Source of the DNA: Gemmatimonadota bacterium
GTDB lineage: Bacteria > Gemmatimonadota > Gemmatimonadetes > Gemmatimonadales > Gemmatimonadaceae
Length of the DNA stretch: 46,646 nucleotides
Reading direction: 5' to 3'
NCBI GenBank assembly: GCA_040389905.1
Contig: JAZJZK010000043.1
Span: 1 to 46,646, forward strand
Notes under the pieces: generated by a model
Told to the model about the DNA's origin: nothing
Databases searched by the model: none
What the model saw: only the letters and a program-made list of their open reading frames with translations
Shown here: positions 10,344 through 41,883 of the stretch, in pieces
Numbering within the stretch: the stretch's first letter is position 1
Layout of the letters: every line of letters begins with the position of its first letter
Made by a program: the position numbers and the translations under genes

Positions 10344-10375
10344 TTCGGCAGTTTAGCAAATTTGAAATTTCAAAT

Positions 10376-18093: not shown

Positions 18094-18096
18094 CGT

Positions 18097-18132: not shown

Positions 18133-18142
18133 GGATTAGGGC

Positions 18143-21550: not shown

Positions 21551-21561
21551 CGCGTTTTCTC

Positions 21562-25547: not shown

Positions 25548-26717
25548 TCACACCCCGAGGCTGAATATCGCGCGGTAGTTGCAGGCTGAGGCGTCCGTGT
25601 TGTCGATCTTGATCGACTGGGCGTCTCCTGGAATCGTCATGGGCGTCATCAGAGTTCCCTGGACGACAAGCTGCGCAGCGCAAACAAATCCCGCCGAGTC
25701 CAGTAAGCTGACCGTAAACTTACCCACGGTCGACAATGTCGAATACACAACAAGTGATTTCGAAAATTGTGGAATGGCCGCGCCACCGAAAGAGCCATTA
25801 CCGACCTGGTCGAGATACACAGTTCGCGTGATAGGCGTAGTTCGCAAAATCGCCCCGAACGAAATCTGTCCGTACAGCGTCACCAATGGAAACGAAGTGG
25901 GGGCAGTAGCATTCGGCAATGACGCCACGTTCGCCACCGCGAGGTCGATTGCGAACTGACTGCCCGACAAGGTCAGTTGGCAACCGAGTGGGCCGATATC
26001 GACCTCCATACTTTGAAGAAATCCGCGTGTACCAAATTTGATTCTAGCGTAGGGACGGATCGGCGCAGGACCGCCTGGACCTCCCGCTCGCTCGAAAAAA
26101 TTACCTTTCGATGCCGTAGTCCCCAGGGTGATAGTCCCCACAGACGTCTCAGCGTCTTTCCCTGCCCACTGAGCGACTGTCGCGAACGGATCATCCCCAG
26201 TCGCGGCAACTTGCAAAATAGCTACGTTACCAAGTGACCCATCGAGAACAGAAGGCGGGTTACTCCGTACAAATGGCGCGACAGCGTTCAGATCGGCGTG
26301 TTCGTTTTTTCCCTGCTCGACACGCGTGTAGAAATCATCACCGCCGGCTGCACGCGCAGCCTTGTCCTTGTCCATGAGGTACTTGTCGACCTCATCGATA
26401 TATCGACTGGGCTGAATCAGGTTGTCGATCTGTCCAAGCCCAACCCCTCCGTCGTCAATTATCATTCGCGGCACCGCACCGATGACCGGCGCCTGCTTAT
26501 GCATCGCTGCCATCTTGAGCGCGAAGTCGACCTCGCGATCGTCAAGAGCGCGTCCCAGCTTCATCTTCTCGCCAATGAGAGCGGCGATGGCTGCACGCGA
26601 GCGCACCTCGCGCTCCTCAGAGGACATCTGCGCGGCGGTGATCCGCGGCGATGTTTTATCGTCGGGCGGTGCAGAAAGCTCACCGAGAATATTCTTGAAC
26701 GGATCGTCGTCACTCAT
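25548..26717 (-). CDS. Putative virion structural protein with beta-rich C-terminal domain, paralog of 36823..37770
   Basis: Shared blocks: W.G.D.ET, RP[YF]A...[FW]G, E[VI]DIG, RT.Y[LI]D, P.F, end in [LS][GI]-like hydrophobic C-terminus. Confidence 0.6.
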   Translation of the reverse strand: MSDDDPFKNILGELSAPPDDKTSPRITAAQMSSEEREVRSRAAIAALIGEKMKLGRALDDREVDFALKMAAMHKQAPVIGAVPRMIIDDGGVGLGQIDNLIQPSRYIDEVDKYLMDKDKAARAAGGDDFYTRVEQGKNEHADLNAVAPFVRSNPPSVLDGSLGNVAILQVAATGDDPFATVAQWAGKDAETSVGTITLGTTASKGNFFERAGGPGGPAPIRPYARIKFGTRGFLQSMEVDIGPLGCQLTLSGSQFAIDLAVANVASLPNATAPTSFPLVTLYGQISFGAILRTTPITRTVYLDQVGNGSFGGAAIPQFSKSLVVYSTLSTVGKFTVSLLDSAGFVCAAQLVVQGTLMTPMTIPGDAQSIKIDNTDASACNYRAIFSLGV

Positions 26718-27127
26718 TTTTGCTCCTTCGCTTTCTCGTCGCGGGCTTTCTTCCACGCGTCGTTCTGCTTCTCGGCTGCTTCCCACGCTTCGATGTGTGG
26801 CAGCATCTGCGTTGCGTAACGCGCAAACGAGGGAGACCACTCGAACGTACCTATAACAGCGATGGCAACCACAAAGTCAGCGTCCTCTACACCGATCACG
26901 TCACCAGGTTTGCACCCCAGAAACACTTGCTCAATCTTTTGCTGCCGCCGCGCTCCGTTACCACCACCTTTGGACAGATTCGGGTGCACACACAGATTGT
27001 CGTAGACAAAATCCTCGTGTGTGATGACCCACGGGACAGCAGGACCGTCTTTCTCAAGTGAGACCTTCACTTCTTTTCCGCCGCGGTCCACAATATTTAC
27101 GTCAGCGGGCACGATGATATGTTTCAT
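26714..27127 (-). CDS. Hypothetical protein, possible spike-associated chaperone
   Basis: Directly downstream of the spike gene; coupled to the next gene. Confidence 0.6.
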   Translation of the reverse strand: MKHIIVPADVNIVDRGGKEVKVSLEKDGPAVPWVITHEDFVYDNLCVHPNLSKGGGNGARRQQKIEQVFLGCKPGDVIGVEDADFVVAIAVIGTFEWSPSFARYATQMLPHIEAWEAAEKQNDAWKKARDEKAKEQK

Positions 27128-27145
27128 TTTTCCAAATTTCCCCTG

Positions 27146-28534
27146 TTACGGTCCGAACACAGTATACGCACCTCCGTCGACAGACGCTTCAAAATGTTTC
27201 GAAGCAGCGATGTAGCGAATACGACCATGTCCGGCAGCGGAGACCGCTGCGTTTGAACCATCCGTCATGTCGATGAACGCCGCCGCTGCCACGCCGTAGA
27301 GCAAGAGCGCGCCGGCTTGATTCAGATCAGCAACCGGCGTCTCGTTGAATTGAAAACTGAAGTGCCCAGTAGGCGTCGTGCTGTCGACAATATGCTGAAT
27401 GTCAGCGTCATAACGCGTTGGCGAACCGCCGCTGAAATAACTGCCACGCCAGCGAATGCGCGGACTCGGTTGCGTCGGGTTACCGCCGGACGAATCAGTT
27501 CCAATCTGCAGAAAGTCCGCGAACCCTGCCATGAAGCCCGCGCCCCACTCCCAGACGGTGGTGCCGGCGGCTTTCAAGAACCCAGTGCCGCTACCAGAGT
27601 TATCGGCATCGACGTTGACCGTGAAGTTGGTGTTGCAACTTACGTCGACCTCACCGCTGGAGAGCACCGTGACTGCTGCCCCGCCCGAGTTCGCTTTGAT
27701 CCACGCCTGACTGTCGTCGACGTAGTGCGTATTCAACCCTGACGGCGAGTTCATTCCCGCGGTGGTCGGCGTGATGCCAACCGTGCCGCCACCACCGGGA
27801 CCAACGTTGATTGTCTCCGCGCTGATGAACAGCGTCGAGACATACGGCGCAATAAGACTGCTCAAACACGACCAGATGCGCGTAGCCACACCGTCAGGGT
27901 GCCAGAACACCTCGTGCCGCTCGGATTGACGCCCGTACGGAGCGCCCTCAAAGCTAGTCTCGAACTCGCTCGACCAGCCGCCAATATTGGTTCCCGTGAT
28001 GATGAGCCCTCCACCGGCAGCGACGTTCCAACCAAAGCGCGAAACTTGGTTTTTACGCGCCCAAGTGGCATTGTTGAATTGGCCAAACCAATGCACCCAC
28101 GGAACACTACCAGCTTCGGTCGGTTGAAAATTCAACCATTGGGTATCTGTCGCGTCCGACCCGGTAAGAGCAGGGCCGATGTTGAGCGTACCCTGACTTG
28201 AAACACCTAGAATAGATGTTCCGACGGCCATCGTGAGGTTCGTGGGTGAGAACGAGTAGAGATTCACACCTGCCGATGTCTGCAGTGCAAGCATCGTCCC
28301 GATCGGGGCAGCGTTGTCCTTAAGGATAACGGGACCGGCGGCTGCGTTAAGCAGCATCGTCGAGTCGGCCGCGGAGACCCCGGACGCGTAGGTCTGGGCG
28401 AGCGTTCCGCCACCACCTGGAGACAGACTGTCGAGCTTGATTTTGTCGGCAGCGCTCATGAAGCCAGCCATCGTGGTCGTCACGATGTTGGTGTCTACCC
28501 ACCCGGCGCCACCCTGGACGTAGAGCCTGCCCAT
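27146..28534 (-). CDS. Spike / receptor-binding fibre-like protein
   Basis: TTTMAGFMSAADKIKLDSL fibre-type motif; Gly/Ser/Thr-rich, beta-strand-rich body. Confidence 0.65.
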   Translation of the reverse strand: MGRLYVQGGAGWVDTNIVTTTMAGFMSAADKIKLDSLSPGGGGTLAQTYASGVSAADSTMLLNAAAGPVILKDNAAPIGTMLALQTSAGVNLYSFSPTNLTMAVGTSILGVSSQGTLNIGPALTGSDATDTQWLNFQPTEAGSVPWVHWFGQFNNATWARKNQVSRFGWNVAAGGGLIITGTNIGGWSSEFETSFEGAPYGRQSERHEVFWHPDGVATRIWSCLSSLIAPYVSTLFISAETINVGPGGGGTVGITPTTAGMNSPSGLNTHYVDDSQAWIKANSGGAAVTVLSSGEVDVSCNTNFTVNVDADNSGSGTGFLKAAGTTVWEWGAGFMAGFADFLQIGTDSSGGNPTQPSPRIRWRGSYFSGGSPTRYDADIQHIVDSTTPTGHFSFQFNETPVADLNQAGALLLYGVAAAAFIDMTDGSNAAVSAAGHGRIRYIAASKHFEASVDGGAYTVFGP

Positions 28535-28538
28535 CGGA

Positions 28539-29288
28539 CTATGCCTTCAGGCAGTCCAGTGGATCGATGATGTCTCGAAAAATTTCGCCGCCAACGATCG
28601 TGTCCTGCGAGCCGAAACCGAACGGTGCACCGACGGCATAGACCTTGTCGACGAAGGGGAACCACTTCGTCGGTGAGTGCTTGACCGCGTGCAGAATCTC
28701 ACTCTCGTGCGCGAGCGCATACGCCTCGAGCCTCGCCCACGTCCTCGCCTCACCGGCATCCTGCGCCATCGCGACGATCTTCTTGGTCGCGCCCGAGCCC
28801 ATCGTGTGTGCGAGCTTGACGAGGCGCCAAAAATACTCTGATCCCTTCGGCGCCACATCAAGCACGTTTACCAGTTTCATGTACTGGCCAATGAGCGCGA
28901 GGCCGCCGTTGATCGAATACGTCGCATCTGTCGACAACCGCTGATGGTCAAGTCCGAGCGACTTGGACTCCGACGGCATCAACTGAAATAATCCGCGCTC
29001 ATCGAGTTTGGTCACCTCGCCGAGTCTGCCTCCCGATTCCTTCGCGATCCAGCCGACGAGAACACCGAGCGGTACTTTCGACGAATCCGCCGCCTGCTTG
29101 AGCATGGGCAAGATTTTGTCGACGAGCTTGTACCCCGTGGACGTGGGGAACCCGACCGGCGGTGGTGCACTCGGCGGCAGATCGGGCTCGTGCACGGGCA
29201 CGGGCCTGTCCGTCGACGCGAGCGCAAGTGCAATCAGCACACCTGCGCCCGCACCGACGAAAATCACTAGCGGAATGAGGACAGGCAC
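28539..29288 (-). CDS. Membrane-anchored lytic transglycosylase (SLT domain)
   Basis: N-terminal TM, Pro-rich linker, WIAKESGG (catalytic E), GLFQLMP, SINGG; GTG start after GGGAGG. Confidence 0.88.
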   Translation of the reverse strand: MPVLIPLVIFVGAGAGVLIALALASTDRPVPVHEPDLPPSAPPPVGFPTSTGYKLVDKILPMLKQAADSSKVPLGVLVGWIAKESGGRLGEVTKLDERGLFQLMPSESKSLGLDHQRLSTDATYSINGGLALIGQYMKLVNVLDVAPKGSEYFWRLVKLAHTMGSGATKKIVAMAQDAGEARTWARLEAYALAHESEILHAVKHSPTKWFPFVDKVYAVGAPFGFGSQDTIVGGEIFRDIIDPLDCLKA

Positions 29289-29299
29289 GACTTCCTCCC

Positions 29300-29455
29300 T
29301 TACCGACGACCCTTGCGAAAGAAAAAGTAATACGCGAGACCACCCAGGCCCGCGGCCCAGCCCCACACCGGCACGCCCATCTTCTTCTCGCTCCAGTCCA
29401 CACCCAAAAGCTCATACTTGCCCGAGTCGCCAACCACCTTCGTCAAATTACTCAT
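29300..29455 (-). CDS. 51-aa tail-anchored membrane protein (not in ORF track)
   Basis: MSNLTKVVGDSGKYELLGVDWSEKKMGVPVWGWAAGLGGLAYYFFFRKGRR; AAGGAG RBS. Confidence 0.75.
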   Translation of the reverse strand: MSNLTKVVGDSGKYELLGVDWSEKKMGVPVWGWAAGLGGLAYYFFFRKGRR

Positions 29456-29483
29456 TTTCGTTCTCTCCTTGCTGGTTGAACTA

Positions 29484-30164
29484 CTATCTCTTCACGTGCG
29501 AATGCACGCCGAAGCCGAGACCTACTGCCAGCGACAAAATGATCGCTCCAGCACCCGCAATCCCCACCCACTTCAAAGTCGTGAGGAGACTCCCGACGCT
29601 CTTGGTCGCCTCGTCGAACTTCTTCTTGATGTCCGGTACCGCCTCCTCCATGTAGTGCGCGGGTGTGTCGAGCACGCGCCCTGAAAAATAATCGTTTTGC
29701 GACTGCGCGAAAACCGGCCCGCTGTAGACCTCGTCGAGCGGGTTGCGCTTCGTCACCTTCGCGATCTCACCGGCCAGCGCTTCGAGCTGTGCCTTGAACG
29801 TCGACGCAGTAATCGTCGGCGCCGTCTGATTGAGAATCTGCCCCGAGATCTGCCGCGCGTAATCCTCGAGCGACTGCTTCGACGACAGATGGGCGCCGAC
29901 GATGCACGCGTACGCTGAGTCTAGCAAGCCAAAGTCACGCGCCTTGCCCTGGCGATGAGCGAGCTCGTCCGCACCGAGCACGAGGGCGTCAATCTCAATC
30001 TCTTCATCGTCGTCATCTAAATCGTAGGCGTAGGAGGGTCCGCCCCACCAGGCGCCCCAGCCGCGCGGACCGCCACCACGGTGACCTCCACCGCCGTGGT
30101 GACCACCATGCCCGCCGCCACCGTGGCCGATGCAGACGTCAAGACCTCGCAAACAGCGTGTCAT
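29484..30164 (-). CDS. Putative virion membrane protein (C-terminal TM)
   Basis: N-terminal LRGLDVCIG, Gly/His-rich then acidic tract; C-terminal hydrophobic helix plus basic tail. Confidence 0.75.
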   Translation of the reverse strand: MTRCLRGLDVCIGHGGGGHGGHHGGGGHRGGGPRGWGAWWGGPSYAYDLDDDDEEIEIDALVLGADELAHRQGKARDFGLLDSAYACIVGAHLSSKQSLEDYARQISGQILNQTAPTITASTFKAQLEALAGEIAKVTKRNPLDEVYSGPVFAQSQNDYFSGRVLDTPAHYMEEAVPDIKKKFDEATKSVGSLLTTLKWVGIAGAGAIILSLAVGLGFGVHSHVKR

Positions 30165-30557
30165 TTATTTCCTCGCAACCAGGTAGACACCGCCGCCGAG
30201 TACCGCTGCGCCAATGAGGCCGCCTACCACCCACATCGTGGTCTTCTTCGAGTCGGCGGCGCGCTTTTCTTCTTGTTTGCGCATCGCCTCGGCCTGGACT
30301 TTGGCCGCCTCCACCGCCTTGGCGTCTGGAGAGCCTCCCGCACCGAAGCCCGAGGCGAACGCGCTCAGGTACGGCGTGACCTGGCTCATGTCCACGCCAA
30401 CGAGTTCGGTAACCGCCTCGGTGAAGCCGTCGAAGCGTTCAACGACGATGTCCGCGCTTGTGTCAAACTCATCATCATTGGCCGGCGCGTCGTCGCCAAT
30501 GCGGTGACAAGCCACTACGACATCGAAACCACGTTGCGCACGTTGATTGAGCGACAT
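30165..30557 (-). CDS. Putative virion membrane protein (C-terminal TM)
   Basis: RGFDVVV motif; ends MWVVGGLIGAAVLGGGVYLVARK. Confidence 0.75.
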   Translation of the reverse strand: MSLNQRAQRGFDVVVACHRIGDDAPANDDEFDTSADIVVERFDGFTEAVTELVGVDMSQVTPYLSAFASGFGAGGSPDAKAVEAAKVQAEAMRKQEEKRAADSKKTTMWVVGGLIGAAVLGGGVYLVARK

Positions 30558-30962
30558 TTACTTCCTCCGCAAAAATGTGATCAACAGCGACGACAGCGTA
30601 ATTGCTGCGCCTGCCCCCGCCGCTGCTTGCCAGCGCTTGACCGGCGCACCGGACCACGCGGGTTGAAACCACCACCCCACCGTCGCGTTCACCTTAGCGA
30701 TAGACGCGAGAGGAGCAAGTGACGAGGTTCGAATGAAGTACAGGCCGTCGTGCCCATTGACGGTGACCGGCGTGTACTGAACACCCTTCGTGTTCGGCAC
30801 CGACTTGCCTTGCGGCCACACGTTGGCACCCGGCTGCAGCGTGAACGCCGGGTCTTCGTCACCCACGTTGCCAGCGCTATTGTCGGCCGCCATCATGCTC
30901 GCGGCGAACACCGCGGTGTTGACTGACTTGACACGCAAGGTTGGCATTTCGACGCCGATCAT
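30558..30962 (-). CDS. Putative virion membrane protein (C-terminal TM), possible SH3-like core
   Basis: Ends QPAWSGAPVKRWQAAAGAGAAITLSSLLITFLRRK. Confidence 0.7.
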   Translation of the reverse strand: MIGVEMPTLRVKSVNTAVFAASMMAADNSAGNVGDEDPAFTLQPGANVWPQGKSVPNTKGVQYTPVTVNGHDGLYFIRTSSLAPLASIAKVNATVGWWFQPAWSGAPVKRWQAAAGAGAAITLSSLLITFLRRK

Positions 30963-32344
30963 CGTCTCCTCCGAAATACAGCCAGCAGCACCGACGACAC
31001 CGCGATGGCGGCACCGGCACCCACTCCGGCCTGCCAAATCTGCACGGGACTACCTGTCCACAGGGGCTTGTGGAAGTAATCGAGCCACGACGCCTTTGCC
31101 GTCGCTGTGGATGCCGTGGACGCGCTGGGGATAACCTGTGTGTTCGCACCGAGCACGCGCAGCCGCGGGCGGCCGAGAAGCTCACCTACGATGTCGGAGA
31201 AAATGTCGTCCTCGGGACGCTTCTTCTCACCCGTCTCGTCAACCTCGGAAGCGTCTTCGGCATCGGACTCGTCGGCAGATTCTTCAAACGAGCTCGTGTC
31301 GTCGGCAGATTCTTCGGCTTCTTCATACTCGTTGGTGTAGCTGCTATCGCCGGCATCTGAGGGAGCGCCTCCTTCACCGGTACCGCCGCCACCTTGTTCC
31401 CCACCGTCCTCATCTCCGCCGCCGCCCGTGTCTTCTCCACCGCCACCTTCGTCACCGCCGCCACCCCCACCGCCACCCCCACTGCTGCTGCCTCCGCCAG
31501 TAGCACCGCTATCAAGAGACGACGGAGGTGTAGAAGGCGCAGCAATTGCCGCGTGTACCTGTGCAAGCCAGGCGTTCGCATCGGCCTGGATTCCATTAAC
31601 AGTGGCGATAATCGAACTGTCCGTCGGATCGGCGGCAATGGCGTTCTGACACCGCTGCATAATCAGCTGACCCTGCTGCACGAGCGGCGGACTCACGGTG
31701 CTCAACTGATTTAAATCGATTGCCATCAGCGACGTCAGAATCTCCCCGGCGAGCGCTTGCGCGTCGACAACGAAACTGCTGACGAGATCCGCCATCATAT
31801 CGGTCGTGGCGGCACTAAAACTGAAATCGAGGCCCATAACCTCGCGCAGAATGCCGCTGATTTGATCGCCTTTAACGGTGGTCTTCGCCGCTGCTTTCGC
31901 CGCCTTAACCTTCTTCGCCGACGAGAGCGCCTTCTGCCCACTCGAAGCTAGCTTCGACGCCGCCTGCGGATAGCGCTTTGCAATCTTCCGGGACACCGCG
32001 AGGGCGCGGTTGCCGGCGCGCTGGAGCGCGTCCACGTCAGCACCCGGTGGGATCTTCAGCGCAGCAGGTTTCTTGGCCGCATCGGCAGCGGCCTTCTGCG
32101 CTACCGGCGAAACTTTCGACGCAGTCGGGGCAGCGGCCCTCTGCGCTACCGGCGACACTTTCGCTGCGGATGGTGTAGCTGCCTTCTGCGCAGTCGTCGT
32201 GGAGATGACCTTAGCCGCGGTGGGTGCGGGCGCAGCGGCCTTCTTCGCAGTCGACGACACGACCGGCGCCGCGGCAGCCGTGGCCGTTTTGGACACGAAC
32301 TTCACCGCACCGATGGCGTCCAGGCCGCGCAGGTCACGCGTCAT
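30959..32344 (-). CDS. Low-complexity putative virion membrane protein
   Basis: N-terminal LRGLDAIG; Ala/Lys-rich repeats (KVSPVAQ x2); poly-Gly and acidic linker; C-terminal TM plus RRRR. Confidence 0.8.
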   Translation of the reverse strand: MTRDLRGLDAIGAVKFVSKTATAAAAPVVSSTAKKAAAPAPTAAKVISTTTAQKAATPSAAKVSPVAQRAAAPTASKVSPVAQKAAADAAKKPAALKIPPGADVDALQRAGNRALAVSRKIAKRYPQAASKLASSGQKALSSAKKVKAAKAAAKTTVKGDQISGILREVMGLDFSFSAATTDMMADLVSSFVVDAQALAGEILTSLMAIDLNQLSTVSPPLVQQGQLIMQRCQNAIAADPTDSSIIATVNGIQADANAWLAQVHAAIAAPSTPPSSLDSGATGGGSSSGGGGGGGGGDEGGGGEDTGGGGDEDGGEQGGGGTGEGGAPSDAGDSSYTNEYEEAEESADDTSSFEESADESDAEDASEVDETGEKKRPEDDIFSDIVGELLGRPRLRVLGANTQVIPSASTASTATAKASWLDYFHKPLWTGSPVQIWQAGVGAGAAIAVSSVLLAVFRRRR

Positions 32345-32346
32345 TT

Positions 32347-32778
32347 TTACCGACCCTCTCCGTAATAATACCGCGCAGCACCGACGGCGAGAAAGCCGAT
32401 GACGAACCCGAGCGCCGAGTTCGTCTTCATCGCGGCCGAAGCAAACACGCCTGCGTGCGTCTGCGCCAGGTTCCAGACGGCTTCGTTGCGCGTCGCCGCG
32501 TTGAGTAGTGCTGGCGCGTTCGTGCCTATCGAGCAGCCGGAGATGGCGCCGAGAACCCAGTGCCCGTGCTTGGCGCCGATGATGCCACCAGCGACGAGGC
32601 CGGCGGCCGATCCGATGCCCCAGTCGATCGCGACTGGCTCCGAACGCGCATGCTGCGCCAGCGCCTGCGAGCCGAGCAACGTGCTCGAGTCGCCGACGAG
32701 CTTGTCCGCTCGCGCGAGGTTGCGCCGGTACCCGGTCACGCGGTTGGCGTGCTCGAGGTATTTCTCGAGGGTGGTCAC
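32347..32778 (-). CDS. Multi-pass Gly-rich membrane protein, paralog of 33434..33835
   Basis: GTG start overlaps the upstream stop; GHWVLGAI..SIG.NA vs GHPFLGFV..SLG.NA. Confidence 0.7.
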   Translation of the reverse strand: MTTLEKYLEHANRVTGYRRNLARADKLVGDSSTLLGSQALAQHARSEPVAIDWGIGSAAGLVAGGIIGAKHGHWVLGAISGCSIGTNAPALLNAATRNEAVWNLAQTHAGVFASAAMKTNSALGFVIGFLAVGAARYYYGEGR

Positions 32779-33422
32779 TTCTTCCTCATCGAGCGCATGA
32801 TGAGCGTGATTGCGGTGAGGCTGCCGACGCCGACCAAACCCCAACCCCAAACAGGGAGGCCGCCATGCACCGAGGTGATCCACGACCCTGAGCCGTGTTT
32901 GCCGCCGTGCTCGGCCTTCTCGACCGCGGCGGTCACCTCGGCGGTCGGTGGCGCACCACACGCGTCGGTGACCACCTTCCAGCCCTTGAACTTGGCCTGC
33001 TTTGCGATGTCCTTCGGCGACTTCGACGCATCCGAAGCTGCCGCCACGAGCGCGTCCTGCGCGGCCTTGCAGCGCTTGCCGATGCCGTCGCCCTGCAGCG
33101 AGGCGCCGGCTACGATGGCCACGGCCTTCTTCGAGTCGCGCATCACGCGCGACGCAGCCGTCGCGGTCGGGTCGATGGTGGCAAGCTCGAGGTTGGCCTC
33201 GGCGTTCGCCCACTCCTGGTCGGCTCCGATGGACTTCTGCACGGCGGACTCGGAGTCCTTCTTGGACTTGTCCGCGGCGTCGGCAGCCTGTTTTTGTTCG
33301 ATACCGGTCGCGGCCACGTTCGCCAAGCCCTTGACGAGCCCGCCGTAGTCGAACGCGCCGATGGGCGTGGACATCTCTTGGATCACGCTCTCACCGAGAA
33401 CAGCGTAATAGTCACGATTCAT
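32775..33422 (-). CDS. Putative virion membrane protein (helical, C-terminal TM)
   Basis: MNRDYYAVLGE...; ends GGLPVWGWGLVGVGSLTAITLIMRSMRKK; AAGGAG RBS. Confidence 0.75.
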   Translation of the reverse strand: MNRDYYAVLGESVIQEMSTPIGAFDYGGLVKGLANVAATGIEQKQAADAADKSKKDSESAVQKSIGADQEWANAEANLELATIDPTATAASRVMRDSKKAVAIVAGASLQGDGIGKRCKAAQDALVAAASDASKSPKDIAKQAKFKGWKVVTDACGAPPTAEVTAAVEKAEHGGKHGSGSWITSVHGGLPVWGWGLVGVGSLTAITLIMRSMRKK

Positions 33423-33433
33423 AGCGTTCTCCT

Positions 33434-33835
33434 TTACTTTCTCAACCCTAACACGAATACGTTTGCGTTGGAGCCCTTCACAAGCGACGTGGCGACGAGC
33501 CCGACCGCGAGTCCTGCAAGTCCACCCCAAAACGGATGCTGTTTCCACAGCAGCGAGCCGGCGACGATAGCCAGCGCCTGCCCCACGTTGCAGGCTGCGA
33601 TCGTTCGATCGTTACCTTGACCGCGCCACGTACGAAACGCGTTCTGGCCCAGTGATTCTGCCATCACGAAACCAAGAAACGGATGCCCGATCTTGAGCCC
33701 GTAGAGCGCGCCGGCCACGCCCGCGATGCCGCCAGGGAGCAGCGTCTTCGTGTACGGCAGGTTCCCCATCGCCGGGTCGGCGAGCGACGCCATGCCAGGC
33801 GAGATGGCACCGAGGAATGAAAGAGCGTGGCTCAT
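33434..33835 (-). CDS. Multi-pass Gly-rich membrane protein
   Basis: Several GxxxG hydrophobic segments; HPF[LW]G repeated twice. Confidence 0.75.
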   Translation of the reverse strand: MSHALSFLGAISPGMASLADPAMGNLPYTKTLLPGGIAGVAGALYGLKIGHPFLGFVMAESLGQNAFRTWRGQGNDRTIAACNVGQALAIVAGSLLWKQHPFWGGLAGLAVGLVATSLVKGSNANVFVLGLRK

Positions 33836-34032
33836 CTACGACCCTTCTTTCGCGCACGCTTGCGCGGCACGCCCGCCATCCGGTACGCGATGGCAATAGC
33901 TTGACGTTGTGGATATCCTTCACGCTTAATCAAAAAACGAATCTTGCGCGAAATCCACGCACGTTTTTTACGTGACAACTTCGCCTTGCGTTTCTTCGTC
34001 GCCTTGCGCTTGCGCGTTTTCTTTCGCGCCAT
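33832..34032 (-). CDS. Small Arg/Lys-rich nucleic-acid-binding protein
   Basis: MARKKTRKRK...GYPQRQAIAIAY...RKKGRR; coupled at both ends. Confidence 0.75.
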   Translation of the reverse strand: MARKKTRKRKATKKRKAKLSRKKRAWISRKIRFLIKREGYPQRQAIAIAYRMAGVPRKRARKKGRR

Positions 34033-34445
34033 CAACGCCCTCCTGCGAGCTTGACCGCACCGTACCCCAGCGCCGACAAGAGCACGCCGAAGAAGATACC
34101 GCCGGCCAAATCACTCGTAGGCTTCGAACCCTTCGGCGGCGTCTGCGTAATCTCGACGGTGATCTCCGAGCCCTTCTCCTTGAACTGCTTCTTTAGCTCG
34201 TCGGCGACCGTCGAGTAGATCGTGTTCTCGATAAACTCCGGCACGAGCATGCCCGTCGCCCACGCCACGCCCTCGCCCTTCTCCTTGGCGACGAGGCCGG
34301 CCGGGTCGTTGATGTGCATCGTCAAGTACGTCTTGCCTGCACCCGGCGCAGCACCGACGTCAACGATCAAGTCATCTGCACCCTGTCCTGGTTGTGCACT
34401 CGAACCGAGGAGAACGTCGAGACCTTTGCAGCACGCGGTTTTCAT
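34032..34445 (-). CDS. Putative virion membrane protein (C-terminal TM)
   Basis: N-terminal KGLDVLLG; C-terminal LAGGIFFGVLLSALGYGAVKL. Confidence 0.75.
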   Translation of the reverse strand: MKTACCKGLDVLLGSSAQPGQGADDLIVDVGAAPGAGKTYLTMHINDPAGLVAKEKGEGVAWATGMLVPEFIENTIYSTVADELKKQFKEKGSEITVEITQTPPKGSKPTSDLAGGIFFGVLLSALGYGAVKLAGGR

Positions 34446-34447
34446 TT

Positions 34448-36817
34448 TTAGACCTCGCCGAAGTCCAGGTCATCCGAACTCGGACGCTTCGACGCGCTCG
34501 CGTTGAGCTCGGCCTCGGATGCGTCCGCGTCGTTCTGCGCGTCTGCCGTCTGCTCGAAGCTCGCGGCGTCGTCCTCGGTCGGCATCGGCTGCGCGTCCTC
34601 GAATCCCGGCGGCGCCTGCTCGACGTCGTCGAACGGACCCGACGGTTGACCCTGCCCTTGATCCTGCATCGCGCCACCTGCTTTGAGGAAGTCGGCGTAT
34701 GCCTGACTTTCAGCTTGTCCCTGTTGAAACGCCAGTTGCTGCTGCTGCGCCTGCGCCTGGTCCTGCTGCCCCTGGTAGGCTACATCCTGAGCCTGCTGCT
34801 GCGTCGCAAGCTGCGCCTGCTGCGTCTGGTCGGCCACCGCCGCGAGGTCTGCCTGGTGAGCCGCTGCCGCGTTCTCAGTCTGCGTCGTCTTAGCGATCTG
34901 CGCCGCGGTCTGGGCGTCAGCGAAGTCCTGCGCAACTTGAGCGGCGTAATTGGACTTCGCCGTCGTCATGTCCGTGTTCCAGTCCGTCAACATCTGGTTG
35001 TAGAGCACGAGCTGATCCTGCGCAGTCGCCCAGGGAGGCGCCGCGTTTCGAAACCAAAAAAACATTGGCGCGCCCGCTCCGCCGCTGCCGTAGGCGTAGC
35101 GGAGGCCACCGTACTCGGCGTTGTTGGGGTTGCCGACGAGAGGACCCCAACCGTGCGCACCAGAAGCGTCGAACATCACGTCGAGATTACTGGCCTCTTG
35201 TGCATTCGGCGGATTGAGGCTAGACACGTTAGTTGGTGCGTACACGAACCACCGACTACCGTCGGTGCCATGCCATTCAAAACCTCCGTTCGGGTGATTA
35301 CCGTCGGAGTAATCCGCATACGGCTTGTCCTTCTTCGGCATCCACGTGTTGTAGCTCGTGATGCCCTTGAACGGCGGCACGTGCGACGACCCAAGGTCGA
35401 AGGTGAACGGAATCGCACCCGTGTAGCGCGCCTTGAGATCGTCGACATTCGCCGCGTTGTACTGCGTCTGCTCGCCACCAGGCGGTTCACTCATGAACGC
35501 GCTCGGATCCATGTACGCCTTCTGAGCGTCACTCATGGTTGGAGCAGACTTCATCCCGTAGTTCGTGTCCGGCCCTGGATAGCGGCCAGTCGAATACGCG
35601 CCATCGGTCGAACCGCCAGGGGCGCCACCGCTCGCGCCCGCACCACCGTACTGCGCCGAATCCGCGTACGACAGATCCCCGAACGCCGGGTCGAGCGCAC
35701 CCGAGGGCTGCAGCCAACCGTTGCCGTCGGGCGTGTCACCAGGCTGCGAAGGGATCGGCGACTGATCGGTGTTGTAGCCCGGATGCGTTGGATCAGGCGT
35801 GCCGGCGCCGATGACCATCGCATGCAGCATATCGCCGAGGAAGGTCGCCTGTGCACCGACGATGTCGAACGCCTCCTGCGCTTCATCGATGACGTCTTCG
35901 AACGGGTTGCCGACGCCGAGGATTTCGAAGTGCTCGCGATCGAGCGGCGGCGCGTTGTGATGATCACCGAAGATGCCGTGCACGCCCGTCGCACCCTTCG
36001 GGTTGAGCAGCATCGCCGCGGCCTTGACGCCCGCGACGGTCTTCGCCTTGGCCGTAGCGGTCACGGTCGCGTGCGTGTCGGCGGCAGCGGCAGTTTTCAC
36101 TCCCGCATTGCGCAGATCGACTGCAAGCTTCTTGACCTGCGCGAGCGATGGCACCGTATGTCCACTGCGCGTCTTGCGCGGCGGAGTGCCGAGAAACGCG
36201 TTTTTAATCGTCGACAGCACGCTGCCGATGAGGCTCTCGCTCTCGCCGACGACGCTGCGCTTTACAGTCTTCGTGGCAGGCTTGTACTGCGCCGCCGCGA
36301 TGGCGTGGTCGAGCTTGGCGGCGATCTGCAGTGCGTTCTTGGCCGCCGCTCGCGCGTTCGCGACCGTGACGGCGTCGCTCTTTCGCGTCATCGTCTTCGG
36401 GATGACCATCGCCGTATGAATACGCCCGTGGACCGGCGACACGGCCTTGACGAACTGCGCGCGCCCCTGCAACACCGACGGGCGCGTGGTCATACGCGCA
36501 CCGGCGCGGCTCGCAAACTGCGGCACCGAGCCGACGATATCCACGCCTCGCAAACACGCGGTCTCGCCGCGAATGTAATCTTCGTGCCCTTGGAACTCAA
36601 TCGGGCCGATGGCAGGACCCGGAGGAACAAGCTCCTCGAAGATTTCGCCAAGGATCTCAGCGATGTCGGCGCCACCGTCGCCGAGAATCTGCCCGTCACC
36701 GCTGACGACAGGAGGCGGGATCTCGTCGTCCCACGCCTGCGCGGCATCCGCGTTCTCCTGCGTGAGATCGGCCATGTGCTCGTCGATAGCATTTTCACGT
36801 TCGGTGCTCATGGTCAT
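34448..36817 (-). CDS. Large putative virion protein (about 790 aa)
   Basis: GAGGAG RBS; about 10 phi-phi-G motifs in the N-terminal half; Gly/Pro/aromatic central domain; Gln-rich coiled coil; acidic tail. Confidence 0.8.
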   Translation of the reverse strand: MTMSTERENAIDEHMADLTQENADAAQAWDDEIPPPVVSGDGQILGDGGADIAEILGEIFEELVPPGPAIGPIEFQGHEDYIRGETACLRGVDIVGSVPQFASRAGARMTTRPSVLQGRAQFVKAVSPVHGRIHTAMVIPKTMTRKSDAVTVANARAAAKNALQIAAKLDHAIAAAQYKPATKTVKRSVVGESESLIGSVLSTIKNAFLGTPPRKTRSGHTVPSLAQVKKLAVDLRNAGVKTAAAADTHATVTATAKAKTVAGVKAAAMLLNPKGATGVHGIFGDHHNAPPLDREHFEILGVGNPFEDVIDEAQEAFDIVGAQATFLGDMLHAMVIGAGTPDPTHPGYNTDQSPIPSQPGDTPDGNGWLQPSGALDPAFGDLSYADSAQYGGAGASGGAPGGSTDGAYSTGRYPGPDTNYGMKSAPTMSDAQKAYMDPSAFMSEPPGGEQTQYNAANVDDLKARYTGAIPFTFDLGSSHVPPFKGITSYNTWMPKKDKPYADYSDGNHPNGGFEWHGTDGSRWFVYAPTNVSSLNPPNAQEASNLDVMFDASGAHGWGPLVGNPNNAEYGGLRYAYGSGGAGAPMFFWFRNAAPPWATAQDQLVLYNQMLTDWNTDMTTAKSNYAAQVAQDFADAQTAAQIAKTTQTENAAAAHQADLAAVADQTQQAQLATQQQAQDVAYQGQQDQAQAQQQQLAFQQGQAESQAYADFLKAGGAMQDQGQGQPSGPFDDVEQAPPGFEDAQPMPTEDDAASFEQTADAQNDADASEAELNASASKRPSSDDLDFGEV

Positions 36818-36822
36818 TCTCC

Positions 36823-37770
36823 TCAAATCGAGAGTTCAAAAGGAAGACGGACGTGCTGCGTGGTCATCGTCGTGGTAGTCACGTTCAACTTCACGATGTC
36901 GCTAGTAAGCGGAATCGTAGAAATTTGCGTACCGTTGCCGATGTTCAAAGTGTAGCGAATCGTGTTCGACGTATCGATAAAATCGATCTGCACCGATCCC
37001 CCAGGGTCACTCATCTGCACCGGCAAGATGCCTGATGCAAAGGGAGGCACCACAATCGAGGCCGGGACGTTCTGTGCCTGCGAGTCGATGTATCGCGTAC
37101 GAATAAGAGGACTCGTCCGCACCATATCTCGAAACGATAGGTTTGCGCACATGTTGGCCTGTGCGGTATTCGACGCCGTCAAGGCATCGAGAGCGACCAG
37201 TACTTCGATCATCGACGCATTTATCGTGAACTGACGGCCGGTACCGATATCAATCTCGGCCGTGAAATTGTTTCCGTAGCTGCCCCAGTGCACGATCGCG
37301 AACGGTCGAACCACAGCACCAGCCGTCGAGACGAGCGGAGTCACGAGGCCGATGGTCACCGTCACCGGGCCGGTCTCGTGGTCCTCACCCTGCCAGCGCG
37401 CCACCGAGTCTTGAACGATGACGATATCCGAGGTGAGGCTGGCATTCGAACCAAGCGCCGGGGACTTGCCCGTAGCCGACGGCGGATTGCCAATGGACGC
37501 CGACGCGGCGTTGATGCGCCGAATTCTTTCGATCTCAGCTTCGACGTGCTGGTAGAACTCATCCTTCACCGCAGCATTTTTTTCGGCGGTGGCGAAGCGT
37601 TCGATATCGTCCTGCAGCGGATCGATGTATCCGCTCGGCTTAATCGGATCGAGAATTTCTGGTTGCAGTGCCTCATCCTCTTTGACGAACGAGCGTCCGT
37701 CATCGAGCTCCTGCGCGATATCATCAAACGGCGAGCTATCATCAAAATCGTCATCTTCAAAATCGCTCAT
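36823..37770 (-). CDS. Putative virion structural protein (beta-rich), paralog of 25548..26717
   Basis: Acidic N-terminus; about 200-aa Thr/Val/Ile-rich beta domain aligning with the paralog. Confidence 0.65.
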   Translation of the reverse strand: MSDFEDDDFDDSSPFDDIAQELDDGRSFVKEDEALQPEILDPIKPSGYIDPLQDDIERFATAEKNAAVKDEFYQHVEAEIERIRRINAASASIGNPPSATGKSPALGSNASLTSDIVIVQDSVARWQGEDHETGPVTVTIGLVTPLVSTAGAVVRPFAIVHWGSYGNNFTAEIDIGTGRQFTINASMIEVLVALDALTASNTAQANMCANLSFRDMVRTSPLIRTRYIDSQAQNVPASIVVPPFASGILPVQMSDPGGSVQIDFIDTSNTIRYTLNIGNGTQISTIPLTSDIVKLNVTTTTMTTQHVRLPFELSI

Positions 37771-39239
37771 TGGCTGACCGCCTGTTCTTTACCACCCTGG
37801 AACAGCACCAGCTTCGCATCCTTGACGACGACCTTCTTACCTCCAGTTTTCAGATTCAACGTCACCTGCGCGGGGGAGTCATAGCCAAAGCTGAACTTAT
37901 CTCCCGCGCCTCGCTTGTAGCCGTTGCCGTCGAAGCGCACACCACCGAGCACGCCGCACGCCGACACGGACGAGTTGAGGTACTCGTCATGGGTGCCGTT
38001 CACGTGGATGACGATCACGCTATCCGGCGACGCGACGATCACGATGTTCGACTGCGGCGCCTTCGGGGCCGGAGGAGGCGGCATGAATACGCCGGGCTTT
38101 ACGTCCGCGGTGCCGCCCGCCCAACCTGGCAGAGCGGGCGCCTCGAGCTGCGTCAGCTGATCGCCGAGCGCGCCCGCACCGAACGCGTGCAGGAGAATGT
38201 TGCCCCCCGTGTGCGCGCCGCCGAAGAAGTTCACGCCGAACTCGCGCGCATCCATGCCGACGACCTGCGCCTTGCGCTTCTGCGCGCTCGTGAGTCGCAC
38301 GCCGGCATCCTTGACGAGGCCGCGCCACGAGGACGCAAGCTTGAGCGCCTCGCGACACGCCTGCTTGTCGCCTTGCTGACAGCGCTGGAGGAGCGCCATC
38401 ATCGCCGCCATGTCGGGATCGGCCTGCGGAACAACGAGTCCGACGAACGGCTCGCGTGCCTGCGCAAACACGGGTGCGGCGGCGCAGATTTCGCTGAACA
38501 GCTTTCTCCCGGCGACCTTCGGCGCGAGGTTGGCGCCAACGAGCAGCGCCTCGTCGCCGACGCAGCCGACGACCTCCGCGCAGCCGACGACCTCCTCGAA
38601 GGTGTCGTCGAGCGGCGCGCCCGTCGTCGCGATGCCGTACGGCGTCCGCGCGCTCACGAGCACTTCGTCGCCGTCGGTCCAACACTCGACTTTGCCGCGC
38701 ATCGACGACGGCAGCCCGAGGTCCACCGGCTTGCCGCCGCGCGCTGCCTCGGTGACGACGCCGATGACCGCCTGCTCGTGCTCGTCTGAACCGCCGCCGT
38801 CGAGGTGGCGCTCGAACTCCTCGACGTCCATATTGTGGCCGCCGTGGTGGTCCGAGATGTGCCCCTCGAAGGCGCGCTCGAGGCGCCCCAAACGCGCGTC
38901 GAGGTCAGCGAGGTACGGCTGCCGACGAAGGTCGCGAAATTCGGCGTAGGACTCTTCGCCGTCGAGGCGCACGAGCTTCGGGCGGCCGATGGCGGAGCGG
39001 AACATCTTGCGCAGGCGATCGTACAGTGGGTAGTGCCCGTCGATGATGGTGGAAGCCGCGCCGACGACGTGCTCGGCTGGCTCGAACGTCCACGCGGTGG
39101 GGTCGAAGCCGACAAGCTCGACCCGCACGGGCACACGAAAACGGCGACGGCGAAGCACGCGCAGCGTCTCGCCCATCATGTCGATGATGTCGACCGACTC
39201 GGCGCCGAGGACGTCGTCGAATGCCTCGCGGGCGTTCAT
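37767..39239 (-). CDS. Putative virion/morphogenesis protein with many phi-phi-G motifs
   Basis: ATG in TAATG overlap; DDVLG, ELVG, HVVG, AVIG, EEVVGCAEVVGCVG, QVVG. Confidence 0.75.
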   Translation of the reverse strand: MNAREAFDDVLGAESVDIIDMMGETLRVLRRRRFRVPVRVELVGFDPTAWTFEPAEHVVGAASTIIDGHYPLYDRLRKMFRSAIGRPKLVRLDGEESYAEFRDLRRQPYLADLDARLGRLERAFEGHISDHHGGHNMDVEEFERHLDGGGSDEHEQAVIGVVTEAARGGKPVDLGLPSSMRGKVECWTDGDEVLVSARTPYGIATTGAPLDDTFEEVVGCAEVVGCVGDEALLVGANLAPKVAGRKLFSEICAAAPVFAQAREPFVGLVVPQADPDMAAMMALLQRCQQGDKQACREALKLASSWRGLVKDAGVRLTSAQKRKAQVVGMDAREFGVNFFGGAHTGGNILLHAFGAGALGDQLTQLEAPALPGWAGGTADVKPGVFMPPPPAPKAPQSNIVIVASPDSVIVIHVNGTHDEYLNSSVSACGVLGGVRFDGNGYKRGAGDKFSFGYDSPAQVTLNLKTGGKKVVVKDAKLVLFQGGKEQAVSQ

Positions 39240-39859
39240 TAGAAGACACCATTCGCGTTGCGGAAAAGCTCGAGGGTGGCTTCGAACCGGTTCTCCGGAT
39301 CGCTCCACTTCTCGAGCGCGGCGCGACCGCCACGGTGTAAAATCGCCAGGGCGCCCGACATACTTACGTCATCGGGTCTTTCGAAATCAGGTCGCAGCGC
39401 GCATTCGTCATAGTGCTCAGCTTCTTTCAACAGCTTGTAGTAGGCTCGGCAGCTCGCCACAAACACCTTGTACTGCGCGTTCGCACTCTTCAGGAACAGG
39501 TCGCGCGTGAGCGGTGGCACCCAGTCCGCCACCTGCACCGAGCGGTTGGTGATCGGATCGCGCTTGTAGCGCAGGTTCTCAACGAGCTTGAGGTCGGCCA
39601 GGCGCTTGTAGCGGATGTCGAACATGCCGAGGCCGTTCGACGGCGACACCGCGTCCAGCGGCGCGACCTTCATCGCGAACACGAAACTGGTCCACGCGGC
39701 GTTCGAGACGTTCGGCAGCTCGCTCTTGAGCACGCGCTCGTCGGCGCGGAATGGGCGCAGAGCCGGGGCGGTGCTCGCCGCCTCGGGTGGAGCGAAGCCG
39801 ATGGTCTCGCTCGCGGGCTCGGGCTTGCGCGCGTCGACGATGAAGGGGAATTTGCTCAC
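39239..39859 (-). CDS. Lysozyme-like fold protein, probably degenerate
   Basis: NGLGMFDI...LADL...FLKSANAQYKVF...SGALAILHRGG echoes G.YQF...FL..P..Q...SG.LA.AH..G; catalytic ES not seen. Confidence 0.5.
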   Translation of the reverse strand: MSKFPFIVDARKPEPASETIGFAPPEAASTAPALRPFRADERVLKSELPNVSNAAWTSFVFAMKVAPLDAVSPSNGLGMFDIRYKRLADLKLVENLRYKRDPITNRSVQVADWVPPLTRDLFLKSANAQYKVFVASCRAYYKLLKEAEHYDECALRPDFERPDDVSMSGALAILHRGGRAALEKWSDPENRFEATLELFRNANGVF

Positions 39860-40569
39860 GCGACCCTCTTTTTATTGCTGAGGAGATCGCTCACCGCGGC
39901 GTCGAGCGATGCGCCATCGAACGAGGACGTCATCGACTTCAATGCCGGGCGCAATGCCGCACGCCCGTACTTGCGAAGGATGTCGCAGCGCTCCTGGTTC
40001 TTTTGAATTTCGATCATGCGGTCGGCAGCGCGCTCCGGCTGGTACATGCCAAGCAACAAGGAGGGGTCCTCGCTCGTTTCGTAGTTGCACGGGCCGAGCG
40101 GCGGCCACAGCACGAGCGCGTGGTAGGTGGTACCGCCGCCGGGGCGCTCGCGACTTGTCATGAACGGGCGCGCTGGGATTCCTGCTTGACGAAGCTCGGC
40201 GACGCGCCAGCAGGCGAGGCCGTCACAATCGATCTCGCCGAGCTCGAGGATCACGCCGATATCGCAAAAGTGCTCGCCGCCCATCACGTCCTGAATTTTC
40301 TCGAGGACGCGGCGTACGTCGCCCTTGCGCGCGGCGGCGCCGAGGGCTTCCTTCAGGATCTTCACCTCGTCGATGTCACCGGTCAGCTGCTTCGGCTTCG
40401 CCCAGTTCACACCGGACTTGTAGAGGCGCGGGGTGGAGGGGCGCTCGCTGAGGTAGTCCTGATTCCTTTGGACAAGGGCCTCCATGAACCAAATCAAATC
40501 TTTTTCGGTTTTTAGCCGACTGTCGCCGTCGGAGAAGCAGGTTAGCTCACACCAAATATGCCGCAACAT
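39856..40569 (-). CDS. Transglutaminase-like (papain-fold) Cys-His-Asp enzyme
   Basis: IDCDGLACWRVAEL (Cys), YHALVLW (His), EDPSLLLGM (Asp). Confidence 0.8.
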   Translation of the reverse strand: MLRHIWCELTCFSDGDSRLKTEKDLIWFMEALVQRNQDYLSERPSTPRLYKSGVNWAKPKQLTGDIDEVKILKEALGAAARKGDVRRVLEKIQDVMGGEHFCDIGVILELGEIDCDGLACWRVAELRQAGIPARPFMTSRERPGGGTTYHALVLWPPLGPCNYETSEDPSLLLGMYQPERAADRMIEIQKNQERCDILRKYGRAALRPALKSMTSSFDGASLDAAVSDLLSNKKRVA

Positions 40570-40590
40570 GCGTGCTCCACCTCGACTTAG

Positions 40591-40627
40591 AAAAACGCCG
40601 CACCGATTAACGAAAGTCGGTGCGGCG
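40591..40627 (-). terminator. Intrinsic terminator downstream of the candidate capsid gene
   Basis: Perfect 11-bp stem CGCCGCACCGA/TCGGTGCGGCG followed by T5 on the minus strand. Confidence 0.8.
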
Positions 40628-40662
40628 GGTTAATCCCTACTAAACAACTCTGACGCAGTGCG

Positions 40663-41223
40663 TCAGTAGGCCGCCTTACCCCACAATTGACCAAAAAAGG
40701 TCGACGTGGTGATGAAGCTCACCGTGAACGCGATCGACAGCGCCGGCTGGCAGGTGTCCCACTTCACGCCGTTACCGAGCGCGTTGTTCGCGAAGAACAA
40801 GGTCAGCGCGCCGTTCGAGGTCGCCGGGCGCTGAAGCTTGTTGCCGATGATGACCTGGGTGATCGACGTGTTGAAGCCGGCGCCCTGGGGGCCGACGTCG
40901 GTCGCCATGATCTTCTCGACGCGGAACAGCGTCTGCGGCTGGATGGTGATGGTGGTCGTGGTGCCCGCGGTGCCCGACACCGGGCCGAGGGGGAAATCCC
41001 AGTCGCGGGCCTTGTCGACCGTCGACCGACGAACCATCGGACGCGCGTTCGCGATGCGCGCCTGGACGAACTGCGCCATCTGGGGCGAGCGCTGCACCAT
41101 CTCACCGAGGAGCTGGTACGCGCCTTCCGCGCCCAGCACCGAGAGGTCGGCGCCACCGCCACGAACCTGCTCACCGACGAGATCGTCCCACTCCGTACCT
41201 GCACCGATCAATGGATTACTCAT
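40663..41223 (-). CDS. Candidate major capsid protein (single jelly-roll-sized beta protein)
   Basis: 186 aa; N-terminal arm with four phi-phi-G motifs, then about 8 predicted beta strands (TTTITIQPQ..FRVEKI..SITQVIIG..SIAFTV..FFGQLWG); strongly GC3-biased codons; own terminator. Confidence 0.55.
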   Translation of the reverse strand: MSNPLIGAGTEWDDLVGEQVRGGGADLSVLGAEGAYQLLGEMVQRSPQMAQFVQARIANARPMVRRSTVDKARDWDFPLGPVSGTAGTTTTITIQPQTLFRVEKIMATDVGPQGAGFNTSITQVIIGNKLQRPATSNGALTLFFANNALGNGVKWDTCQPALSIAFTVSFITTSTFFGQLWGKAAY

Positions 41224-41430
41224 TTGCTTGTCTCCCTTGTTGCCGTCTGGGTACGCCAGGCCCGAACATTCGGACCTGACTGCGTTGCCGACTTGCGCGC
41301 GGCGCAGAACTCGCACCACCTCCGCTCACTGCCGGCTTGCTGCACCCTTGGGGCTCGGACTCGCCCGGCCTTTCGGGATCAGGGGCTACGGCGCGACTTC
41401 CGCCGGCCGTAGCCGAACTTCAAACCGCGA

Positions 41431-41883
41431 TTACCGCGGTCCCGTGTTGTTCGCCATCTCCTCGGCCGTCAAAAAGGGGCCGTCCGCACGCGGCGGAATC
41501 ACACCCACGACCTGCTGCGGGGACTTCTTGCCGGCGACTCCCTTGGGCGCGGCGTGCGCCACCGAGCGATTCGCCTTGTCCGAGCCCCACGACGCGCCGA
41601 CCGCGTACATGTACGTGGTCATGCCGACGTCACCTGCGCGCTCGAGGTGCTTGTTGCCGCCGAGCAGCGCCGAGCCGATGTAGCCGGCCACGCCGACGAT
41701 CGCCTCGATGCCGACGCCGTGAAAAACGGCCTTGTCGTAGTAGTAGCCCTTGATGGCGCCGAGGGCCGCCGCCATGACCGCGCGCTCGCCCTTGTCCATG
41801 ATGAAGGGCATGAGGCCCGACCCGGCCGCGAGACCCGTAGGAAGGTTGCGCGGGACCGCCTTGATCATGCTCAAAATCTTCAT
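41431..41883 (-). CDS. Putative virion membrane protein, first gene of structural operon
   Basis: AAGGAG RBS; Gly-rich hydrophobic segments; QQVVG motif. Confidence 0.7.
   Translation of the reverse strand: MKILSMIKAVPRNLPTGLAAGSGLMPFIMDKGERAVMAAALGAIKGYYYDKAVFHGVGIEAIVGVAGYIGSALLGGNKHLERAGDVGMTTYMYAVGASWGSDKANRSVAHAAPKGVAGKKSPQQVVGVIPPRADGPFLTAEEMANNTGPR

Follow-up and report, generated by a model that had tools for sequence, protein, structure and literature searches.

A glycine-ending motif shared by the particle proteins of a probable uncultured virus, and a transglutaminase-fold enzyme as its candidate maturation protease

Why should most proteins of one viral operon carry the same short motif, two hydrophobic residues followed by glycine (phi-phi-G), and why should a cysteine enzyme of transglutaminase-like fold be encoded next to the capsid gene of that operon? 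The question is raised by a contig of 46,646 bp from a Gemmatimonadota genome bin (assembly GCA_040389905.1, contig JAZJZK010000043.1; G000:C43), analysed here over its entire length and referred to as the window. Its minus strand carries 21 co-oriented genes, from position 41883 down to 25548, which make up the particle operon (Table 1; genes are named by their lower coordinate). The original prediction, made from the letters alone, held that almost every protein of this operon carries the motif and that the enzyme cleaves at it, much as the proteases of adenoviruses and poxviruses do. The best reading of the present data is that the enzyme acts as a protease that matures the virion by cleaving behind the glycine, which we regard as reasonably probable.

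The motif in the operon and in related loci

In the operon proteins, 72 matches to [VILMF][VILMF]G were observed versus 35.7 +/- 5.6 expected, and 56 to the stricter [VIL][VIL]G versus 21.0, neither count being reached in any of 2000 within-protein shuffles. The control set, 39 window proteins from outside the operon (those of the glycan locus, the integrase, the helicase and others), gave 58 versus 45.9 (56 of 2000 shuffles) and 31 versus 26.6 (422 of 2000), respectively. The enrichment over non-structural proteins, by which the original prediction was to be judged, is thus present, and it persists outside predicted transmembrane segments, where [VIL][VIL]G occurs 45 times per 4970 residues in the operon and 27 times per 8855 in the controls (Fisher p 5.6e-6; p 0.003 when counted per Gly); for the looser class, the difference per Gly is not significant (59/505 versus 52/601, p 0.11). 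All motif strings quoted at the outset are found in the named minus-strand open reading frames, that of 29300-29455 included, and [VILMF]{2}G occurs once or more in 18 of the 21 proteins. Nevertheless, "almost every protein" was too generous: 39239, 36823 and 33832 have none, and the excess is concentrated in the capsid candidate (6 versus 1.7 expected), 37767 (12 versus 4.4), 34448 (12 versus 2.8), 32347 and 30165, with sites of the last two lying partly within hydrophobic segments. Counts stand at chance level in 25548 (3 versus 3.1) and 28539, both among the examples first cited, as well as in 27146 (2 versus 3.5) and 33434. Since 52 sites use 35 different nonanucleotides, the motif is a feature of the proteins and no DNA repeat. 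It is best written [DE]-[IVL]-[LVI]-G, a narrower pattern than the one first proposed.

A metagenome scan yielded 58 related loci, across which the gene order 41431-capsid-(inserts)-enzyme-39239-37767-36823-34448 is conserved. Motifs were counted in 20 of them, namely the enzyme-bearing ones with near-duplicates left out, and genes were called by a custom script, which found each of the window's 38 training genes. The 165 module proteins of these loci contain 407 [VIL][VIL]G versus 150.9 expected (2.7-fold) and 152 [DE][VIL][VIL]G versus 16.2 (9.4-fold), as against 86 versus 96.8 (0.9-fold) and 12 versus 11.0 in the 183 other proteins. All 200 shuffles are exceeded in 18 of the 20 loci, the exceptions being L009 (8/200) and L033 (97/200); because the relatives share ancestry, such locus counts overstate independence. 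Among the 20 phi-phi-X tripeptides, X = G alone stands out (463 versus 172), the reversed G-phi-phi remains at 0.99-fold and [VIL][^VIL]G at 0.8-1.0-fold. The residue at position -1 of the motif is Glu in 25% of cases (4.6-fold) or Asp in 17%, and the motif lies within the first 30 residues in 80 of 163 module proteins, versus 28 expected. When the three most heavily sampled families (capsid, enzyme and 41431) are left aside, the excess is still 2.67-fold, and it amounts to 2.44-fold in 28 proteins outside families. No enrichment was found in the structural gene blocks of P23-77, PRD1, SH1 and PM2 (0.72, 0.57, 0.96 and 1.08-fold, respectively), nor in the binned genome, with 1.04-fold over 1042 composition-filtered long open reading frames and 1.59-fold in the highest of 108 blocks. 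At the level of single sites conservation is mixed: of 33 orthologues of 41431, 27 have a site aligned with G127 (the family being found in 47 loci), G219 of 37767 is kept in 8 of 14, G299 of 34448 in 4 of 4 and G54 of 30165 in 3 of 3, and several others score 0.

Positions of the motif in the capsid arm and at module boundaries

The capsid candidate consists of an N-terminal arm, basic helices and a single, eight-stranded jelly-roll, and it is in the low-confidence arm that motif density peaks (4.0 versus 0.7 per 100 residues). The predicted propeptide region has a net charge of -5, followed by +4 across residues 41-72. Conservation in homologues, which the original prediction had called for, is complete in this arm, the motif being present in 199 of 199 capsid homologues from two clades (92/92 and 107/107). 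Moreover, the mean charge switches at the last arm site from -5.6 to +4.6 in one clade and from -13.8 to +7.5 in the other, so that on average the leader before this site is acidic and the helix behind it basic; a third capsid subgroup has tandem motif copies immediately ahead of the helix. Jelly-roll paralogues lacking the arm exist in relatives. In L009, L011, L023, L036-L039 and L043, the gene of the capsid protein is separated from that of the enzyme by one or two additional jelly-roll paralogues, of which one has an acidic N-terminal region of great length and one is armless, and the short capsid-enzyme interval is an insertion hot spot in L001, L011, L016 and L021, with some of the inserted genes on the opposite strand.

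The second position of interest is the junction within 37767, whose sequence is confirmed by an independent assembly, possibly of the same sample, that shows zero differences over 33341-40410. Residues 329-490 of this protein correspond to the first module of a 34448-type protein in six relatives, and all seven aligned module copies begin after x-phi-G in one column (VVG, VIG, LLG, LLG and VVG, which are five strict motifs, plus PIG and YLG), several of them being closed by additional sites where the window copy has a stop. Core-only orthologues of 37767 terminate where the window protein carries VVG, and four of four further fused homologues retain the junction as VIG, IVG, VVG or LIG. As the motif alternates with start and stop codons, it behaves as expected of a cleavage site; the earlier suggestion of mini-polyproteins is thereby strengthened, with a mobile module whose boundary is the motif itself.

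Other operon proteins show comparable partitions. In 34448, the basic segments 95-189 (net +14) and 209-299 (net +6), and in 30959 the segments of +23, -39 and the membrane anchor, are set apart in such a way that the sites lie between basic and acidic stretches, while N-terminal or pre-anchor motifs are present in 32775, 32347, 30959, 30165 and 29300.

The transglutaminase-fold enzyme and the competing explanations

The gene after that of the capsid candidate does encode an intact catalytic triad, as had been claimed, in the order Cys115-His150-Asp168, with Cys and His invariant and Asp at least 90% conserved among 77 aligned homologues. The protein has the transglutaminase core fold, although its match to the profile PF01841 (Transglut_core; E 0.078) falls short of the cut-off, 13 of the 77 members reaching E<=0.01 (best 2.4e-7). 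Its nearest folds include the peptidases PeiW/PeiP and LapG, and genuine transglutaminases and acyltransferases are also among the matches. The expected co-occurrence of motif and enzyme is borne out in relatives: the enzyme gene follows that of the capsid in every one of the 19 loci having at least 3 kb of downstream sequence, and is also present in a 194-kb relative. The tails of enzyme homologues are themselves motif-enriched (42 versus 16.5 expected). The family is an orphan with more than 600 representatives.

In 15 of 150 homologues, an intein-like insert directly precedes the catalytic Cys. Judging from the way in which inteins choose their sites, an insert at a catalytic residue points to an essential active site, and the enzyme is probably essential. 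These inserts (P0088, P0091-P0093, P0099, P0105, P0109, P0112-P0115, P0123, P0125, P0134, P0184; L016, L018, L020, L041, L042, L045) measure 130-372 residues, the catalytic Cys being the residue after the splice, and several end in Gln rather than Asn. Within the portions of the literature searched, no paper linking inteins to the transglutaminase fold was found.

According to the favoured reading, the particle proteins would be made as precursors that assemble on the membrane, and the Cys-His-Asp enzyme would recognise [D/E]-[I/V/L]-[L/V/I]-G and most likely cut after Gly, a bond chosen by analogy with vaccinia I7L and because papain-fold enzymes prefer a hydrophobic P2 residue. The acidic 40-residue capsid leader would be removed in small pieces to leave a 146-residue protein whose first element, a basic helix, could hold on to DNA or membrane. 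Polyproteins, 37767 and 34448 among them, would be split into modules, and their basic, DNA-binding parts would come free of the acidic ones; trimming would extend to the leaders of proteins anchored in the membrane and, in many relatives, to the tail of the enzyme itself. The acidic pieces would then depart and the basic arms bind DNA. We infer the virion location, the cleavage, the scissile bond and this purpose from the enrichment, conservation, gene linkage and module boundary set out above. The motif-free 39239 is a counter-example.

Among the alternatives, the one that survives best, although unlikely, is that the motif is never cut and acts as a docking or packaging signal. As a short linear motif it would fit into a pocket of the capsid protein or of a scaffold and thereby bring proteins into the particle, the enzyme having another job. 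Sites spaced 5-9 residues apart (58 versus 23 expected) and tandem repeats would provide avidity, sites near N-termini are common, and a relocated module would retain its docking tag. Such a tag would not, however, be expected at both ends of a module; the capsid protein itself bears four copies, the motif ends precisely at charge switches and replaces stop and start codons, and the strictly linked enzyme would be left unexplained.

The fold allows for a different chemistry, which we consider somewhat less likely again. A transpeptidase or transamidase would cut after Gly and pass the acyl group to Lys, an N-terminus or a lipid amine, as in sortase- or ubiquitin-like reactions, or would cross-link Gln to Lys with the motif as a tag. 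Real transglutaminases and acyltransferases among the fold matches, the Gln-rich tail of 34448 and the usual reliance of conjugation chemistry on a terminal Gly favour such an enzyme. Neither Gln nor Lys is enriched around the sites, however (0.84 and 0.55-fold, respectively), four sites in a 40-residue capsid arm would yield tiny acidic donors of no obvious use, and the better-ranked characterised fold matches, PeiW/PeiP, are peptidases.

It is improbable that a host protease or another viral protein cuts the motif while the transglutaminase-like enzyme is directed at the envelope of the host, in the manner of PeiW/PeiP or LapG. The closest characterised folds do target cell walls or surface adhesins, and LapG is described as a periplasmic protease in passages of PMC4359373, but the enzyme has no transmembrane segment, holds a fixed place in the capsid gene block across loci and carries the motif in its own tail in many homologues, and the operon already has a separate lysis or entry enzyme, the lytic transglycosylase 28539. 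Finally, that the motif is a structural or compositional by-product (strand-Gly turns or Gly-rich membrane helices), or that the jelly-roll protein forms a fibre and not a capsid, is the least credible option, largely refuted as regards the motif by an excess that persists outside transmembrane segments, peaks in the low-confidence arm, is absent from the four control phages and the binned genome, and is spelled by 35 codon triplets in 52 sites.

Table 1. Features of the particle operon, in order of transcription
Feature	Position	Strand	Remarks
First operon gene (41431), 150 aa, hydrophobic segment	41431..41883	-	phi-phi-G at G127, 23 residues from C-terminus
Major capsid protein candidate	40663..41223	-	186 aa: acidic low-confidence N-arm 1-40, basic helices ~35-72, jelly-roll 73-185
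Four N-arm motifs: LIG (5-7), LVG (15-17), VLG (29-31), LLG (38-40)	41104..41211	-	Predicted propeptide
Transglutaminase-fold cysteine enzyme, candidate maturation protease	39856..40569	-	237 aa, no transmembrane segment
Cys115 codon (nucleophile)	40225..40227	-	Invariant
His150 codon	40120..40122	-	Invariant in 77 sequences
Asp168 codon (EDPS motif)	40066..40068	-	At least 90% conserved
Conserved 206-aa protein after enzyme	39239..39859	-	No motif in window genome; also in 194-kb relative
Two-part polyprotein (predicted), 490 aa, 12 motifs	37767..39239	-	Conserved core 1-328 and mobile module 329-490
Junction motif VVG (326-328) of 37767	38256..38264	-	Core-only orthologues end here; module begins just after
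Acidic N-region and C-terminal beta-rich domain, paralogue of 25548	36823..37770	-	Motif-free here; 1-4 motifs in 10/10 orthologues
Polyprotein-like protein, 787 aa, 12 motifs	34448..36811	-	Motifs divide acidic from basic segments
Small/medium protein block (34032, 33832, 33434, 32775, 32347, 30959, 30558, 30165, 29484, 29300)	29300..34445	-	Mostly C-terminal hydrophobic segment and basic tail
Membrane-anchored lytic transglycosylase (SLT)	28539..29300	-	Pfam SLT E 1.3e-5; chance-level motif count
Final three genes (27146, 26714, 25548)	25548..28534	-	25548 is the 36823 paralogue; 27146 and 25548 motif counts at chance

The virus and its place among known systems

The contig probably belongs to a bacterial virus that is uncultured and tailless, contains a membrane and builds its capsid from a protein of the single jelly-roll type. 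The G+C content of the contig is 0.60, compared with ~0.635 in most of the bin, its genes have Shine-Dalgarno-like sites and overlapping stop and start codons, and the ESM Atlas neighbours of the capsid candidate and the enzyme belong to clusters labelled viral for the most part. Among 30 window proteins, there was no PHROG or Pfam match to a terminase, portal or HK97 capsid protein. No terminal repeats were found on the contig, and the viral genome is incomplete, since a public-run contig, possibly from the same sample, reaches at least 615 bases beyond the right end of the window. A search of 40 related prokaryotic genomes did not find the capsid candidate, so that the bin need not be the host.

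The left part of the window holds a tyrosine integrase (4460-5329; Pfam E 3.7e-21), which suggests a temperate life style, and a sugar-modification cluster of ~17 kb (5822-22749: GT2, GT4, aminotransferase, epimerase, nucleotidyltransferase, methyltransferases and several orphan enzymes) with a possible role in particle glycosylation; the right part holds a helicase and a very basic protein. The latter (45649-46152) and the motif-free, 66-residue 33832 (33832-34032) are extremely rich in Arg and Lys and are candidates for DNA-condensing core proteins; similar basic proteins are encoded upstream of the capsid gene in relatives. The paralogues 36823-37770 and 25548-26717 share a conserved C-terminal beta-rich region of ~190 residues and are candidates for a penton or minor capsid protein. 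The orphan 39239 invariably follows the enzyme and is fused to a 30959-like, histone-H1-like protein in L016, L017 and L045.

The largest relative (L059/G041; 194,181 bp) is a very large viral contig with the same capsid-enzyme pair and three more weak capsid-profile matches; it has no terminase or A32 ATPase match, and Terminase_6N was not found in G041, which is 88% complete. A packaging ATPase of the FtsK/HerA type was not recognised in the window, the relatives' loci or this 194-kb contig, all searched as incomplete genomes and with a single ATPase profile. The absence of a recognised motor from these incomplete genomes would be consistent with particles that assemble around their DNA, a mode put forward for the Odin group in the available text of PMC5894146. 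Taken further, and with a chance that we put slightly below even, these viruses might form a family of prokaryotic single jelly-roll viruses that is large, widespread and so far undescribed (contigs ranging up to 194 kb or more, packaging ATPase not recognised) and that assembles around its DNA, the acidic leaders of self-chaperoning precursors masking basic helices until the transglutaminase-fold protease cuts every [DE]-phi-phi-G. Bacterial viruses would then have arrived independently at maturation and polyprotein processing in the style of adenoviruses and poxviruses, capsid propeptide included, and the enzyme would be one of a wider set of such proteases, each with its own Gly motif.

If the favoured reading is true, an orphan family of more than 600 representatives gains a function, a common uncultured virus family reveals the convergent origin of a maturation strategy via a transglutaminase-fold enzyme, DNA condensation in a virus that lacks a packaging motor finds a possible explanation, and a protease that is small and soluble becomes available, its predicted site being four residues long. 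The combination of motif and enzyme is not described in the portions of the literature searched, which include PMC10318531 and bioRxiv 2025.02.15.638363. In the accessible text of a review of membrane-containing phages the terms "protease", "proteolytic" and "cleav" do not occur (PMC6356626), nor do "protease" and "transglut" in that of a survey of prokaryotic double jelly-roll viruses (PMC5894146).

With regard to known enzymes of similar fold, LapG/BTLCP (Peptidase C93) and PeiW/PeiP target host surface adhesins or pseudomurein, whereas the present enzyme is unanchored, resides in a capsid operon and, for the window copy, stays under any Pfam cut-off. With regard to known viruses, the Singelaviria (P23-77, SH1, HHIV-2) and SPV1-type single jelly-roll viruses show no sequence similarity to this one, whose relatives reach 194 kb; P23-77 and SH1 lack the motif excess, and in the incomplete genomes studied here a packaging ATPase was not recognised. 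A further parallel is gp34 of SSIP-1, an isolated phage that is tailless and contains a membrane. This Transglut_core protein (E 8.9e-7) carries the annotation of a structural protein, and its D-C, H and D-P align with the enzyme family described here. It is a distant homologue, with profile E values of 6e-4 to 6e-5 in small comparisons, and is membrane-anchored; SSIP-1 has no phi-phi-G excess (1.19-fold; G-[LMFI]-G, 1.88-fold) and its capsid proteins are not detectably related to the present candidate.

The likeness to adenovirus and poxvirus I7 proteases drawn at the outset would hold at the level of function and not of family membership. Vaccinia I7L, African swine fever virus (ASFV) and adenovirus likewise combine a single viral cysteine protease with a short Gly-ending motif common to many particle precursors, and in eukaryotic viruses it is documented that jelly-roll particles mature through proteolysis by Ulp1-type enzymes. 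Adenain/I7L/Ulp1-type proteases have the catalytic order His-acid-Cys, and membership of that family is ruled out by the order Cys-His-Asp together with the lack of enrichment of phi-x-G-G and phi-x-G-x-G ([VILM]xGG 1.3-fold and [VILM]xGxG 0.91-fold in the window, 1.2-1.3-fold in relatives; A-G-x was not part of these counts). The enzymes of those viruses are related to Ulp1/SUMO proteases, and not transglutaminase-like. According to parts of PMC1198262, I7L cuts after the Gly of Ala-Gly-Xaa and the adenovirus and ASFV enzymes after Gly-Gly; the motif here combines a pair of hydrophobic residues with an acid upstream of them. A related vUlp1 is encoded by Polintons, as stated in parts of PMC11071308. 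The present virus, furthermore, is prokaryotic, and its single jelly-roll capsid candidate is itself an apparent substrate.

In functional terms, a shared boundary motif and a putative protease gene conserved in the morphogenesis module would place the enzyme in the class of viral maturation proteases. This class also includes the prohead proteases T4 gp21 and phiKZ gp175, for which a short motif recurring in many head-protein propeptides, digestion to small peptides and self-trimming of the protease are typical, even though these are serine proteases of HK97-fold tailed phages that cut after Glu.

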